Positions 28,369-37,073 of a DNA stretch of 64,000 nucleotides are shown piece after piece. The notes under the pieces were generated by a model. It was not told the origin of the DNA and ran no database searches. It saw nothing but the letters and a program-made list of their open reading frames with translations. Source of the DNA: Candidatus Omnitrophota bacterium (lineage in GTDB: Bacteria; Omnitrophota; Gorgyraeia; Zapsychrales; JANLHA01); contig JACKFJ010000004.1 in assembly GCA_020632535.1 (NCBI GenBank), positions 105,514-169,513 on the forward strand, written 5' to 3'. A program made the position numbers and the translations under genes. Within the stretch, counting starts at the first letter, position 1; each line of letters begins with the position of its first letter.

Positions 28369-28764
28369 TTATTCTTCAAATTTAGATAATTCATTATTCA
28401 AATCAGTGCATAACCTCTCTGGATCCACAACGACACCTTTTGACACAACAGTTGGGAAAACGCCAACTCTCCTTTTGTCTTTAATCATTCCAGGAATCCA
28501 TCTATCTAACCAATCTTGCAAAATAATAAATCGAGGAGCACAATCTTTCCATTCATCGTTCGCACATAATTTTGCATATTCGCTATGCGACCAAACTGGG
28601 ATAACTTCATTCCCATTAGCATCCAAAGCTGAAACCCAACCATCTTTATTTCTTAACGCCCATACCTTTTCCGAATCCGCAACCCTTTTAATAAAATAAG
28701 AATATCTTTCTGCCCCAGCTAAATTAACAACAGATTGAATTTCATGAATACTGAGAATAGCCAT
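28369..28764 (-). CDS. DUF2750-like putative immunity protein (for displaced toxin tip CT4)
   Basis: KVWALRNKDGWV...IPVWSHSEYA...LQDWLDRWIPGMIKDKRRVGVFP matches my memory of DUF2750. The start abuts the CT4 stop. Confidence 0.6.
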   Translation of the reverse strand: MAILSIHEIQSVVNLAGAERYSYFIKRVADSEKVWALRNKDGWVSALDANGNEVIPVWSHSEYAKLCANDEWKDCAPRFIILQDWLDRWIPGMIKDKRRVGVFPTVVSKGVVVDPERLCTDLNNELSKFEE

Positions 28765-29249
28765 CTAATATCCCTCAACTTTATGTTGCAGTTTATGTAA
28801 ATCTATATCTTGCAAATCACTATGTTCATATCCATATCCTTGTTTGGCTTCTTTCCCTCGTCGATGAGCTAATTGTTTTGTCGGAGGAACTCTAATTTTT
28901 GATCTTTGTCCTCTCTCGATACTATTAATATCTTGTTTTATCCATCCTTTGTCAGATTTAGAAACATTTTTATCAGTTAATAAACTTTTCAATTTTTGTT
29001 GTTTGCCTGTACGACCGGAAATCTTACATATACCCTTCGCAACTTTTCCTCCCCCTTGTACATAACCTGCCCCTCCAGGCAAAAATGGAGTACCTAACGC
29101 GACAGAATCATATGCCAGTGATGCTCCCGTCAATAGACCGGGTTCAGTTAAAAAATAGTATAAACTCAACTGCCAAGTAACATAATCGGAAGGTGTTTCA
29201 ACGATTAACCCATACGGATCAACAAAATTGATCGGATCGCTTTCGACAT
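28765..29249 (-). pseudogene. displaced RHS C-terminal toxin tip CT4 (HNH/EndoVII-like?), severed from its core by the transposon
   Basis: Reads (V)[42 protein letters not shown]...KGIC, identical to the main RHS protein. It then has a unique tail: ...KGWIKQDINSIERGQRSKIRVPPTKQLAHRRGKEAKQGYGYEHSDLQDIDLHKLQHK. No upstream core remains; the transposon end is at 29250. Confidence 0.7.
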
Positions 29250-29350
29250 GATACCGTCGAAGAACCCTGCATTTCCAAGTGGACGGACTTTCCGTCCTTT
29301 TTAAAAGAGCAAATTTATCACGACACAGCTATACCGTGTCTTTTAATCTC

Positions 29351-30979
29351 CTAAAATCCCATCACCACCTCCGCTTGTCCTGCAAATCCTTCCAAAACTA
29401 ACTTAATCCACCGCTTAATATTCACGGCAGCGGCAGTGAATAATGCCTGCAATTGTACTTTTGGTAATCCTCGATACTTCGCCCGTCTTAGACCGTGATA
29501 TCGTGTCAATTCTGATAACTTTCCTTCGATCGGCGGACGTAATTTCATATCTTTTTTAAATTCATCCGTTTTGTTGTAGATTTCGGCCTCCCGCAACTCC
29601 TTATTAAACATGCTTATTCCTACTGTCCGTCGCCCTTCCTCAGCTTTGGTACATTCTTTTCTCACCGGACACTTCCTGCACACGCTCATTGGAAAATGAA
29701 ATTGTTTCAACCCATGCTGATGATCTTCAAAATAGGTATTTGTCTTCACACCCTGCGGACATGTTAACGTCAGCGTTTTTTCATCATAATGAAACAAGCT
29801 TTTCGGATAAACTTTTTGAGTAGATTGATTTGCATTCCGCAACGGCGCAACCATCATTGTCGCATTATCATTTAACAGTTTTCGATGCACCCCATTCGCG
29901 TAAGCCGTGTCACCGATTAATTTCTGCGGTACAAGGCCGCTCTTCTTTTGTTCCACTATCATTTGTACTGTCGGCTCACCATCAGGGCGGTTACCGCGCA
30001 TAACATTAATGTTGGTTATAAAATGATTCTCGACAGCCTCCGTCACATTCGCCTTATACCCCACAAATCGTTTTGTGTCTGACTTACATCCATAGCGGGC
30101 ATCCTCGTCGATTGGACTTACCAATAAATCCTTCGGCTTGTCTTTATATTCCCGCTCTTCAATCTTTTCTTGTGATTCTTTGACGTTTTCCTGTAAAATT
30201 CGCTTTAACATCTCGATCCGTTTTCTCAAATCACGGCCAACATTTGCACCTTCTATTTCTTCCAAAACACATCGCGCGTCCATCACTACTTTTACCAGTT
30301 TTACTTTGCGCTTTTCAATATCTAATCGCCCCTCATCGGCCTGATTTACTTTTTCCCGTGTATATTCTGCCATATCAATCTTTCCAAGAATCTTTTCGTA
30401 AACTTTTGGCTTCTGCCCTTTAAGCGGTTTTAATATCTCACGGACACCTTTCTTAACCAGCGCAACCACCGTCGGAATCGCAATATCTGCGATCATGTGG
30501 GTCGCATCAATCCGCTGAATCTCATCGCGCTTGATTAACTCTAAATCAATTAATCGATTTAAAACTTTATCAAAGATCATCTTGCTCTGGCCATTGTCCA
30601 ATAAGCGTTTCCTAAAATCTCCCAAACTTGAATGGTCGAATGGGCGCTCGTTAAGTTTTAATCCAAGCGCGTATTTGATTTCAATATCGTACATACAAGC
30701 CCGTTCCATCTCGCGATCAGAAAGATTTTTATGAAATTGCAACAGCAAAACCATTGCTAATAATTTCGGCGAGATCGGCGGACGCCCATTGTCCTGACAA
30801 TACATCGTTTCAAAATCTAATTCATCCATCAGAGGGGAGACAATTTCTTTGAACTTACGGTAATAACTTTCGGCAGGAATCAGTTCTTCGCAGAGATACT
30901 CGGCATCATAAAACGAAGCTTGTCGTTGGGGATTTTTGAGCATTCTGAAGTCTCCTTTGCGGTTGTTTATTAGCTCCAT
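29351..30979 (-). CDS. IS1182-family-like (IS5 superfamily) DDE transposase
   Basis: N-terminal DUF772-like region (ISPKLLAMVLLLQFHKNLSDREMERACMYDIEIKYALGL). DDE candidates are RIDATHM, LIGDTAYANG and IEGKLSELTRYHGLRRAKYRG. 542 aa. Confidence 0.8.
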   Translation of the reverse strand: MELINNRKGDFRMLKNPQRQASFYDAEYLCEELIPAESYYRKFKEIVSPLMDELDFETMYCQDNGRPPISPKLLAMVLLLQFHKNLSDREMERACMYDIEIKYALGLKLNERPFDHSSLGDFRKRLLDNGQSKMIFDKVLNRLIDLELIKRDEIQRIDATHMIADIAIPTVVALVKKGVREILKPLKGQKPKVYEKILGKIDMAEYTREKVNQADEGRLDIEKRKVKLVKVVMDARCVLEEIEGANVGRDLRKRIEMLKRILQENVKESQEKIEEREYKDKPKDLLVSPIDEDARYGCKSDTKRFVGYKANVTEAVENHFITNINVMRGNRPDGEPTVQMIVEQKKSGLVPQKLIGDTAYANGVHRKLLNDNATMMVAPLRNANQSTQKVYPKSLFHYDEKTLTLTCPQGVKTNTYFEDHQHGLKQFHFPMSVCRKCPVRKECTKAEEGRRTVGISMFNKELREAEIYNKTDEFKKDMKLRPPIEGKLSELTRYHGLRRAKYRGLPKVQLQALFTAAAVNIKRWIKLVLEGFAGQAEVVMGF

Positions 30980-31018
30980 TATAACTCATTCTCCGTCGAC
31001 AAATAGGCATTTTGTGAA

Positions 31019-31255
31019 TTATTTTGTTTGCTGATTTCTTTCAAATATACCTACTACACCAATTAGAGAATCCTTGGTTAACAAATTATAATCCTCTAAA
31101 TGAACGTGTCCTTGATTGGGCTTTGCAATAAGTTTTAGAATCAAATCTGAGAGCTTTTGAAGACCTTCTTTTGTTCCATAAACACAAACCTCATTATTCT
31201 CAAATCTCAACTCTAAAGTTTTATCCTTAAAATCAGGTTTTCTAAATTCTGACAT
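31019..31255 (-). CDS. 78-aa immunity-like protein for CT2 (transposon cargo)
   Basis: Starts 12 nt after the CT2 stop, behind aagggaaag. It is small and cytoplasmic, and sits in the position of an immunity gene. Confidence 0.55.
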   Translation of the reverse strand: MSEFRKPDFKDKTLELRFENNEVCVYGTKEGLQKLSDLILKLIAKPNQGHVHLEDYNLLTKDSLIGVVGIFERNQQTK

Positions 31256-36498: not shown

Positions 36499-36506
36499 TG
36501 TTAGTA

Positions 36507-36632
36507 GGCACCATTGCGAGGAGGCCTTTAGGCCGACGCGGCAAACTAAAAAACCCATTGCGAGCCCGAAGGGCGCGGCAATCTATTCCAAGTTTGTCAT
36601 CCCCGAAATCTCTTATCGGGGATCCATTTGCT
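36507..36632. repeat. REP-like hairpin cluster between the main RHS module and the orphan array
   Basis: Same modules as at 28.15 kb, minus one unit. The terminal hairpin ATCCCCGAaatctcttaTCGGGGAT covaries with ATTCCCGC..GCGGGAAT. Confidence 0.85.
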
Positions 36633-36753
36633 AAGTATTAGAAAATATCAAAGAACAAAATGACAAAAAACAAACCGACTCTCGTCGGCAATTACTTCAC
36701 TAAACAACTATAAGAAAGTAGGCGACGTCACTACTTCTCCCCTCCCCATACTT

Positions 36754-37068
36754 TTATTTTATTTCAAAATTAATTAATGTTTTGGGATATACAATTATAT
36801 AGATATTCTCATTAACCCCTCGATATGCAATCTTTGCTAGTTTTAGCAAATCTTTACTTATCAAATATTCTTCAATCTTTCTAAAAGTTCCCAACGGGTT
36901 ATCAGTTAGTATAAAGTAATTAATTTCTCCTGAACCTATATCATGCCCATCAACATCCTCATCACAAAGCATCTTATTCAAATCATTTTCAATTTCACCC
37001 AATTTTTTAAAACAAATTTCTGACTCAGGAAACTGAACAACAAATTGATATTTCATATTGTCTCCCAT
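36754..37068 (-). CDS. putative immunity protein for the main RHS toxin (CT1)
   Basis: Begins 5 nt after the RHS stop (alternative start MKYQF at 37056, behind gggag). About 100 aa and acidic, with no signal peptide. Confidence 0.55.
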   Translation of the reverse strand: MGDNMKYQFVVQFPESEICFKKLGEIENDLNKMLCDEDVDGHDIGSGEINYFILTDNPLGTFRKIEEYLISKDLLKLAKIAYRGVNENIYIIVYPKTLINFEIK

Positions 37069-37073
37069 CGTGA

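Follow-up and report, generated by a model that had tools for sequence, protein, structure and literature searches.

A putative IS1182-family transposon that brings a toxin tip and a candidate immunity gene in frame to the core end of Rhs genes

The subject of this analysis is an Rhs locus of a Candidatus Omnitrophota bacterium, contained in a stretch of 64,000 nt (GenBank assembly GCA_020632535.1, contig JACKFJ010000004.1, positions 105,514–169,513; hereafter the window, to the whole of which all coordinates refer). The genes of the locus all lie on the minus strand. A full-length Rhs/teneurin-like gene, with its C-terminal toxin tip (CT1) and a candidate immunity gene (imm1), is followed by two orphan units, B and A, each of which contains the same 2456-bp segment encoding a further tip (CT2), a further candidate immunity gene (imm2) and a transposase (Table 1). 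This segment is very probably (we put the probability at about 0.85) a site-specific transposon of the IS1182 family that carries toxin and immunity genes, inserts in frame and has relatives in several phyla.

An identical segment in both orphan units

Both units are arranged in the order 5'-truncated core, CT2, imm2, transposase gene, severed tip and old immunity gene, and their 2456-bp segments are 100% identical. When the window is compared with itself at an offset of 4111 bp, there is not a single mismatch between positions 29246–31711 and 33357–35822, and mismatches resume within a few bases outside these limits; the cores flanking the two copies differ at 51 of 682 sites (∼7%), and the flanking tips are ∼78% identical. 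An earlier reading of this DNA (the original prediction) had described the two units downstream of an intact rhs-CT1-immunity module and the identity of their element-encoded portions, both of which hold, the layout being borne out by open reading frames (ORFs) and domains. What it missed is that CT2, imm2 and the transposase gene form one transposon, recognisable by inverted repeats (IRs) and 5-bp duplications, which cuts both tips at the same codon.

The limits of copy-to-copy identity coincide with imperfect terminal IRs, left GATAGTGTCGGAAAAC and right GTTCTTCGACGGTATC (the element itself reads GATAGTGTCGGAAAAC...GACGGTATC); the imperfect repeat becomes apparent when the left end is set against GATACCGTCGAAGAAC. 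In gene orientation, the left junction of both units consists of core ...TATGTT followed by GATAGTGTCGGAAAAC, and the right junction of ...GTTCTTCGACGGTATC followed by ATGT(T/C) and the remainder of the old tip. Copy B is thus flanked by a perfect target duplication (ATGTT/ATGTT, 5/5). The main gene, the core-end DNA of which is TATGTCGAAAGCGATCCGATCAAT, reads uninterrupted through the target as GGTTATGTC↓GAAAGCGATCC (TATGTC↓GAAAGCGATCC; here and below, the arrow marks the insertion point) and represents the empty site for both insertions. These share one orientation and occurred at the same nucleotide, after TAT-GTN (Tyr-Val) and before the codons for xN(D/N)P(I/V)N. A duplication of 3–4 bp, with the element ending in ...TATCA, was considered and dropped; symmetric GATA...TATC ends and the duplications ACACC and ACGTG found at other sites are better accommodated by 5 bp.

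In the frame of the Rhs core the left IR is translated as D-S-V-G-K, and the linker that follows it rebuilds the core-end motif NLYxYxxNDPxNxxDPxGL (ETNLYAYTGNDPINRIDPLGL). The Rhs frame consequently runs into the toxin of the element, and the old tip is shifted, together with its immunity gene, downstream of the right end. From left to right, the element comprises the coding left IR, the linker, the 115-aa CT2, imm2 and an intact gene for a 542-aa DDE transposase, which matches the IS1182-family model NF033551 over positions 8–488 of 488 (344.1 bits, cut-off 270) as well as Pfam families DUF772 and DDE_Tnp_1_6. Imm2 and the transposase gene are only 40 bp apart. No inner left end is present in this gap, and at none of the loci described below was a repeat match with up to 4 mismatches in 16 found between cargo and transposase gene. 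Therefore, CT2 and imm2 appear to be cargo inside the element. An insertion sequence (IS) in the strict sense has no passenger genes; with its toxin and small ORF, the segment is, as judged from its sequence, a cargo-carrying derivative of the IS1182 family.

Transposition and distribution of related elements

Relatives of the transposase were searched for in one genome per species, which yielded 13 loci. The complete Omnitrophota chromosome OY759724.1 contains three copies of a 2569-bp element, at 1.5, 2.8 and 3.3 Mb, which are 100% identical, have unrelated flanks and cease to be identical, as in the window, at the IRs GATAGTGTCGGAAAAC...GACGGTATC. One of them lies in frame within an orphan Rhs fragment (...YSYV↓DSVGK), and ATGTT is duplicated there. 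Another splits a gene for a membrane transporter, the duplicated bases being ACACC in this case; when the element and one of the two ACACC copies are removed from the sequence, an ORF of 418 aa is restored, which provides direct evidence for transposition.

Ten other loci are found in metagenome-assembled genomes (MAGs) labelled Saprospiraceae, Bacillota, Thermodesulfovibrio, "delta proteobacterium", Proteobacteria, unclassified bacterium, Bdellovibrio-like Pseudobdellovibrionaceae, Bdellovibrionales and Bacteriovoracaceae. In nine of the ten the left end (0–2 mismatches) lies upstream of the transposase gene, at a distance of 0.45–1.4 kb or, in the complex locus L013, of ∼2.7 kb; the tenth, L011, starts at a contig edge and only its right end is visible. 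A matching right end follows the transposase gene in the relatives.

Scanning of metagenome contigs for the exact left-end 16-mer retrieved at least 120 stretches. Among the matches listed, ∼25 are family members by their linker motif, and in 16 of these, where the contig is long enough, the transposase was also seen. The same 16-mer occurs in an unrelated conserved sequence of human-gut contigs (L017, L019, L029, L031, L032, L039, L042 and ∼25 more among the matches listed), which reads ..GGGEPLRRDG↓DSVGKQGVIRQQKTENAFFRF.. in that frame and has no match in Rfam. All 11 matches of the 16-mer in viral contigs are due to chance. The clade is absent from the sequenced plasmids of PLSDB, where the matches listed include only distant IS1182 relatives (≤31% identity).

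The cargo varies across the members. In nearly every one examined, 450–1400 bp between the left end and the transposase gene hold a toxin candidate and a small ORF; the former is 85–170 aa long, in many cases with Gly/Ala-rich hydrophobic stretches, and is usually followed by the small ORF, often one for a membrane protein. A single cargo, at L137, could be assigned to a Pfam family (Tlde1 domain), and a lenient Pfam scan of eight cargo toxins from other loci gave nothing useful.

Target site and the coding left end

In order to assess the constraint on the left end, eight elements of equal linker length were compared codon by codon: seven identified through their transposases, which are 48–78% identical to that of the window, and the window's own copy. 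All five third-codon positions of D/G-S/T-V-G-K are invariant in 8/8 elements; in the conserved linker residues E-T-N-L-Y-x-Y the synonymous codons vary, with majority frequencies of 0.4–0.75. Since the third positions are invariant and the non-coding right end bears a matching repeat, the left-end sequence appears to have two functions, one as an end bound by the transposase and the other in coding.

At 18 sites for which both ends are available, the flanks conform to the consensus AATCTNTAYNNNTAYGTN on the left and NNNAATRATCCGRTAAA on the right (motif AATCTNTAYNNNTAYGTN↓NNNAAYRATCC). At the protein level this DNA reads N-L-Y-x-Y-V ↓ x-N-N/D-P-I/V-N, the end of the Rhs core. The orientation of insertion is constant. 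Perfect 5-bp duplications are found at ten sites (window copy B, L001, L003, L006, L007, L009, L069, L072, L119 and L137). Among the relatives with these ends, about 12 genome loci and 25 of the metagenome loci listed, most sit at ...Y-x-Y-V↓x-N-N/D-P of Rhs genes, and a few have entered non-Rhs mimics of that DNA. These are L003 (TATACACC↓CATAATAACCC), L137 with its Tlde1 toxin (TACGTG↓GAAAATAATCCAGTG, corresponding to ...RYV↓ENNPVRAG of an IS200-like gene), L050 (a gene for an Eco57I-type restriction-modification methylase ending in ...WYGYV) and P0022 (a helix-turn-helix gene ending in ...LYGHV). From the look-alike non-Rhs sites we infer that the target is recognised by the transposase at the DNA level.

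Because the target fixes the frame, every insertion into an Rhs gene fuses the core, up to its valine, to DSVGK, linker and toxin. The linker rebuilds NLYxYxxNNPxNxxDPxGL, and the element thereby supplies its own boundary motif between core and toxin. The linker also resembles the element's own target, and tandem or nested DSVGK scars are present at L012 (5203–5266), L116 and P0019; judging from these scars, family members insert into the linkers of one another. Together with L013, a locus of a Proteobacteria MAG (861–3900) whose 2.7-kb cargo includes Rhs fragments and extra ORFs, these complex or nested loci suggest serial insertions and turnover of cargo inside elements.

Two full-length Rhs proteins with a DSVGK-linked tip in frame were found, L012 (1553 aa) and L074 (1380 aa). 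The former has a Peptidase_C39 domain and is accompanied by a degenerate transposase, and the latter has no transposase within 4.4 kb.

Alternative explanations

It is improbable that the two units arose by classical C-terminal displacement only, that is, that CT2-imm2 entered the locus twice with core DNA by homologous recombination, the downstream IS being unrelated. Orphan arrays with 5'-truncated cores are a known outcome of that process, the core copies of the window are mosaic, and CT2 occurs behind ordinary Rhs core ends without DSVGK in metagenomic proteins (P0002, P0003, P0005, P0010 and P0011). However, the identical block contains no core DNA and is bounded by the first base of the left and the last base of the right repeat, the interval between imm2 and the transposase gene lacks a separate left end, and in other genomes toxin and transposase, with like ends, move as a whole to non-Rhs sites. 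Moreover, homologous recombination does not yield 5-bp target duplications.

A comparably small probability is attached to a single insertion followed by a 4.1-kb tandem duplication with gene conversion that preserved the middle, or by pasting of copy B into orphan A. Adjacency and common orientation of the units would be expected in this case, the duplication around copy A is imperfect, and the 225 nt to the right of that copy are identical to the main gene, so that conversion does operate at the locus. Nevertheless, the tips (SitA6-like and Ntox8) and the immunity genes differ in kind, for which reason the units are not diverged duplicates, and copy B is flanked by its own, perfect duplication. 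Conversion should furthermore drag flanks along, yet mismatches begin 6 bases from the repeat on the left (1 base beyond the duplication) and at the fifth base of the duplication on the right.

Least probable of all is an assembly artefact, in which a repeated IS was collapsed or mis-joined to give a false second unit: the window does come from a MAG, and a short-read assembly of the same organism breaks at the ends of the element (L134, the element alone, broken at the repeat boundary), but three junctions of the window are reproduced by independent short-read contigs of other assemblies (L134 among them), with L135 spanning core B and element and L151 spanning element right end, tip 3, imm3 and core A, both at 100% identity. 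The two copies also have distinct, genuine flanking sequences in which the reading frames are intact, and the architecture recurs in the complete Omnitrophota chromosome.

A number of observations weigh against the transposon and the role proposed for it. Copy A has a duplication of only 4/5 (ATGTT left, ATGTC right), and to account for it one has to assume in addition that copies exchanged flanks or that gene conversion took place; at the remaining target sites 2–4 of the 5 bases match, and at L048 only one. Exchange of flanks between copies located at different Rhs sites, or conversion of such copies, would lead to imperfect duplications. The case for recognition at the DNA level draws on a handful of non-Rhs sites. 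Elements with an intact transposase and enough upstream sequence are all located in orphans or at non-Rhs sites, and no intact element was seen in a demonstrably full-length Rhs gene, in a family sample of small size and with some pattern bias. Of the 120 metagenome matches listed, roughly three in four are chance or unrelated gut sequence, and this sample is no census. CT2 lacks a family match, imm2 has only a sub-threshold match to Imm32, and an AlphaFold2 model of CT2 built from 16 sequences is unusable (pLDDT 52, pTM 0.26). Both copies in the window reside in truncated orphans, and no functional toxin swap is evident in this genome. Finally, the evidence for the transposon and for the functions of its toxin consists of sequence comparison.

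Proposed exchange of toxin tips

According to the mechanism that we propose for the transposon, the element would land at the conserved end of the Rhs core, cut off the old tip and replace it by an in-frame fusion to the element's toxin. If the Rhs gene struck is a full-length one, this toxin would be packaged and released as the old one was, because the element brings its own DPxGL cleavage motif. Imm2 would guard the host, and the retained old immunity gene would preserve protection against kin. The probably silent copies of the window might be activated by a fresh transposition into the main gene or by recombination through the 0.7 kb of core homology. On balance, and with odds only slightly better than even, the multi-phylum family may be a dedicated exchanger of toxin tips for Rhs/YD proteins, with a terminal repeat that is translated, core-end DNA that is recognised and a landing site that is recreated in the linker so that elements can stack.

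Toxin tips and candidate immunity genes

As the original prediction had it, the locus retains four tips and four candidate immunity genes, namely CT1/imm1, CT2/imm2, tip 3/imm3 and tip 4/imm4. Neither CT1 nor imm1 has a family match, even in a lenient Pfam scan. Tip 3 is DUF2380/SitA6-like and tip 4 is Ntox8; imm3 shows only a weak match to DUF1963, and imm4 matches DUF2750. Neither imm4 nor the transposase is on record in an exact-sequence look-up.

Pfam and NCBIfam, searched also leniently, contain no match for CT2, and the similarity of imm2 to Imm32 (E=2.9e-5, 24.3 bits) lies below the cut-off of 27 bits. The 18 homologues of CT2 are all short proteins or fragments of 86–232 aa, several of them on RHS core ends. 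In the alignment of homologues P0001–P0015 the conserved part reads WW.YES.VPGPYGQPMSEWG..GPTGWGDPMKYTE.AGG.W..ERIAVGTAA; behind it, a long hydrophobic helix is predicted, and the C-terminus is variable. CT2 may be a membrane-active toxin. Since it is found both behind DSVGK linkers and straight behind ordinary Rhs core ends, cargo of the CT2 type may have been captured from ordinary Rhs tips.

At the right end of the element, ..TATC and the target bases AT make up a −10-like TATCAT that faces the displaced tip (29248–29277 and 33359–33388, minus strand), with TGGAAA located 18 nt upstream of it. The right end could act as an outward-facing promoter and so maintain expression of the old immunity gene; this is only a hint, weakened by the lack of enrichment of promoter-like sites over shuffled sequences.

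Table 1. Features of the Rhs locus, in the order of the main gene, unit B and unit A. Dup., target duplication.
Feature	Position	Strand	Remarks
Main full-length Rhs/teneurin-like gene	37074–44243 (44243→37074)	−	ORF of 2389 aa; Pfam and Rhs_assc_core matches
Unoccupied target pentamer ATGTC in main gene	37575–37579	−	context GGTTATGTC↓GAAAGCGATCCGATCAAT; three-way junction alignment
imm1, candidate immunity gene for CT1	36754–37068	−	104 aa; no family match
Terminator-like hairpin after imm1	36674–36689
REP-like repeat cluster between imm1 and orphan B	36511–36583		36511–36576 100% identical to 28155–28220
Unit B	36498→32535	−
Core fragment B	35817–36498	−	682 bp; left dup. ATGTT in last 5 bases (35817–35821)
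Transposon copy B	33361–35816	−	2456 bp
Left IR, copy B	35801–35816	−
Linker and CT2, copy B	35385–35816	−
imm2, copy B	35130–35366	−
IS1182-family transposase gene, copy B	33462–35090	−
Right IR, copy B	33361–33376	−
Right dup. ATGTT, copy B	33356–33360	−
Displaced tip 3	32852–33360	−	V-LNDPVNGVDPEGL, pre-toxin region, DUF2380/SitA6-like toxin; severed from core by copy B
imm3, candidate immunity gene for tip 3	32535–32837	−	100 aa; weak DUF1963 match
Unit A	∼32490→28369	−
Core fragment A	31706–32490	−	∼785 bp; left dup. ATGTT at 31706–31710
Transposon copy A	29250–31705	−	2456 bp; 100% identical to copy B
Left IR, copy A	31690–31705	−
Linker and CT2, copy A	31274–31705	−
imm2, copy A	31019–31255	−
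Transposase gene, copy A	29351–30979	−
Right IR, copy A	29250–29265	−
Right-flank pentamer ATGTC, copy A	29245–29249	−
Displaced tip 4	28765–29249	−	pre-toxin region, then Ntox8
imm4, candidate immunity gene for tip 4	28369–28764	−	DUF2750; 131 aa
REP-like cluster closing the island	28155–28290		composite of the 36511–36583 and 44366–44455 types

Core copies and history of the locus

Fragment B is closer to the main gene (95.8% identity over 687 bp) than fragment A (94.8% over 755 bp), as had been proposed on the basis of peptides that are indeed present in the translations (QVSLPDGRTIEYIH and SNNLL in B and the main gene, NVSLPDGRTIEYVH and SDNLL in A). The two fragments exist as then described, except that they end at 31706 and 35817 and not at 31707 and 35818. 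The different 5' truncation points were also correctly noted, and they concern the orphans, not the element: fragment B ends at 36498, 12 bp from the cluster of repetitive extragenic palindrome (REP)-like repeats at 36511–36583, and in fragment A strong DNA homology begins at 32455, with weaker homology at the protein level reaching ∼32490.

The suggested mosaic recombination of the cores is upheld by the 57 variable sites among the three copies, at which A is distinct 29 times, B 22 times and the main gene 6 times. A-type and B-type sites are clustered (17 runs, p=0.007), and the longest run, of 18 sites, was not reached in 100,000 permutations (p<1e-5). Recombination between the copies at the locus is thus evident from their sequences.

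Main gene and tips 3 and 4 have a pre-toxin region of ∼75 aa in common. The first 225 nt of tip 4 (29025–29249) are identical at 225/225 positions to nucleotides 37355–37579 of the main gene; after ...KGIC the two split abruptly into Ntox8 and CT1, respectively. The identical tract to the right of copy A includes the fifth base of the duplication, and the core fragment at the opposite end of the transposon has only 94.8% identity to the main gene. This pattern suggests that exchange also took place at a second junction, located within the tip, and that gene conversion with the transposon as its boundary occurred recently; such a conversion tract would explain the 4/5 duplication of copy A. Since the pre-toxin region is shared by the main gene and both tips, the toxin proper appears to have been exchanged at the second junction as well.

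Tips 3 and 4 were displaced by CT2, and in this respect the original prediction of a successive toxin displacement is accepted. The word successive is not, as two histories fit the sequences equally well: the element may have entered two orphans that were already present, or it may have struck the then-active gene twice, each struck gene being later displaced by a new tip. The orphan units are probably silent, because the terminator-like hairpin precedes them and they do not encode the N-terminal portion of the protein.

Main gene and its surroundings

The main protein begins with a hydrophobic leader and contains three FN3 domains, a TTR/CarboxypepD_reg domain, an NHL propeller and a YD shell; beyond its core end follow the pre-toxin region and CT1. 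It matches the Pfam families TEN_NHL, RHS_repeat (135.6 bits), TEN_YD-shell (132 bits), fn3 and TTR_TEN1-4, and Rhs_assc_core with 60 bits. The gene is accordingly of the Rhs/YD-repeat polymorphic toxin type, with a YD shell followed by an Rhs-associated core that ends in DPxGL. A periodicity of 168 bp is discernible in the DNA of its NHL region (40192–41168).

The architecture is teneurin-like and the N-terminus resembles a secretion leader. No PAAR domain was detected in the protein by Pfam, and the genes scanned on both flanks (glycosyltransferases, Wzy, AbiE and a BNR protein) include none of a type VI secretion system. The protein is therefore probably delivered as a secreted or surface-exposed one.

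REP-like clusters at 28155–28290, 36511–36583 and 44366–44455 flank the whole Rhs island and part imm1 from orphan B; the distal cluster matches the other two over 66 bp at 100% identity and over 91 bp at 96.7%. Upstream of the main gene (44523–44613) there are ∼3.8 copies of a tandem repeat of 24 bp, AAGCATTCGGGGATGACAAATGTG, and a partial inverted copy of it lies beside the middle cluster (36593–36627). It may have been through the REP-like and tandem repeats that the orphan block became joined to the main gene. On either side of the island there is an AbiEii-type toxin gene with a partner ORF upstream of it (26485–28018 and 47194–48829), and the island itself is situated in a region of polysaccharide biosynthesis with glycosyltransferases, Wzy, a Wzc-like kinase and PseF/PseG. 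The product of a chromosomal gene of the window is 100% identical to a protein from a Candidatus Omnitrophica MAG, and its next relatives, too, belong to Omnitrophota.

Comparison with known systems

Displacement of Rhs C-termini and arrays of orphan rhs-CT/rhsI modules are reportedly known from Enterobacteria (Jackson et al. 2009; Poole et al. 2011; Koskiniemi et al. 2014). The locus described here has the same layout: a full-length gene is followed by 5'-truncated cores, each with a tip and a small candidate immunity gene, old immunity genes are kept and the cores are mosaic. In contrast to those arrays, the incoming tip of the window has no homology to the core, is bounded by IRs and a 5-bp duplication, comes with its own transposase and also enters non-Rhs DNA, and its junction is a fixed nucleotide rather than a variable crossover point. 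The layout of the array is thus ordinary, whereas the incoming tip, being in all likelihood a transposon, is not. In Zhang et al. 2012 (PMC3482391), polymorphic toxin tips are described as diversifying by recombination with standalone cassettes, and transposases are mentioned there only in another context.

The nearest described element is TnSha1 of staphylococci, found in many strains, in which IS1272 of the IS1182 family carries sh-fabI upstream of the transposase gene (PMC4923244). According to that source, TnSha1 keeps the inner left end of the IS and uses a surrogate outer end that is 69% identical, and TnSha1/IS1272 targets hairpins without primary-sequence specificity and without target duplication. 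Common to TnSha1 and the window family are an IS1182-family transposase and a single upstream cargo region enclosed by the outer left repeat, the whole moving as a unit. The cargo of TnSha1, as described, is a metabolic gene without fusion to a gene of the host. By contrast, an inner end was not found in members of the window family; their outer end is conserved throughout the family and translated, their target is a specific sequence and 5 bp are duplicated. Neither the IS1272-type target behaviour (hairpin or palindrome, no duplication) nor an inner end of the TnSha1 type is thus seen in the family.

A target-selector protein dedicated to this task directs Tn7 to attTn7, at the 3' end of glmS; insertion takes place downstream of the gene, whose product remains unchanged. 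The window element likewise inserts in one orientation at a site in highly conserved coding sequence, so that a target is available in many hosts, but it has a single DDE transposase, inserts within the gene and swaps the C-terminal domain in frame. H-rpt/ISAs1-type elements reside inside the Rhs elements of E. coli, and transposases are found beside orphan cdiA-CT/cdiI modules. These, too, are insertion sequences physically associated with polymorphic-toxin loci; unlike the window element, they are neighbours, which are not known to enclose a tip within their ends or to be fused in frame to a core. A full-text literature search of partial coverage, which leaves an earlier description possible, returned no Rhs-targeting, toxin-carrying transposon.

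Implications

The supply of new tips to Rhs, CdiA and related toxins has so far been explained in general terms, by recombination with horizontally acquired cassettes. If the reading of the segment as a transposon is true, it would provide a concrete and testable vehicle and mechanism for at least part of Rhs C-terminal displacement, and would account for displaced tips keeping their immunity genes directly downstream. The terminal IR would also represent an unusual case of a sequence under DNA-binding and coding constraint at once. The DSVGK linker, or the end GATAGTGTCGGAAAAC, offers a simple signature for tracing past swaps. In addition, the family points to dozens of small toxin/immunity pairs without family assignment, which would constitute a large reservoir of uncharacterised toxins.

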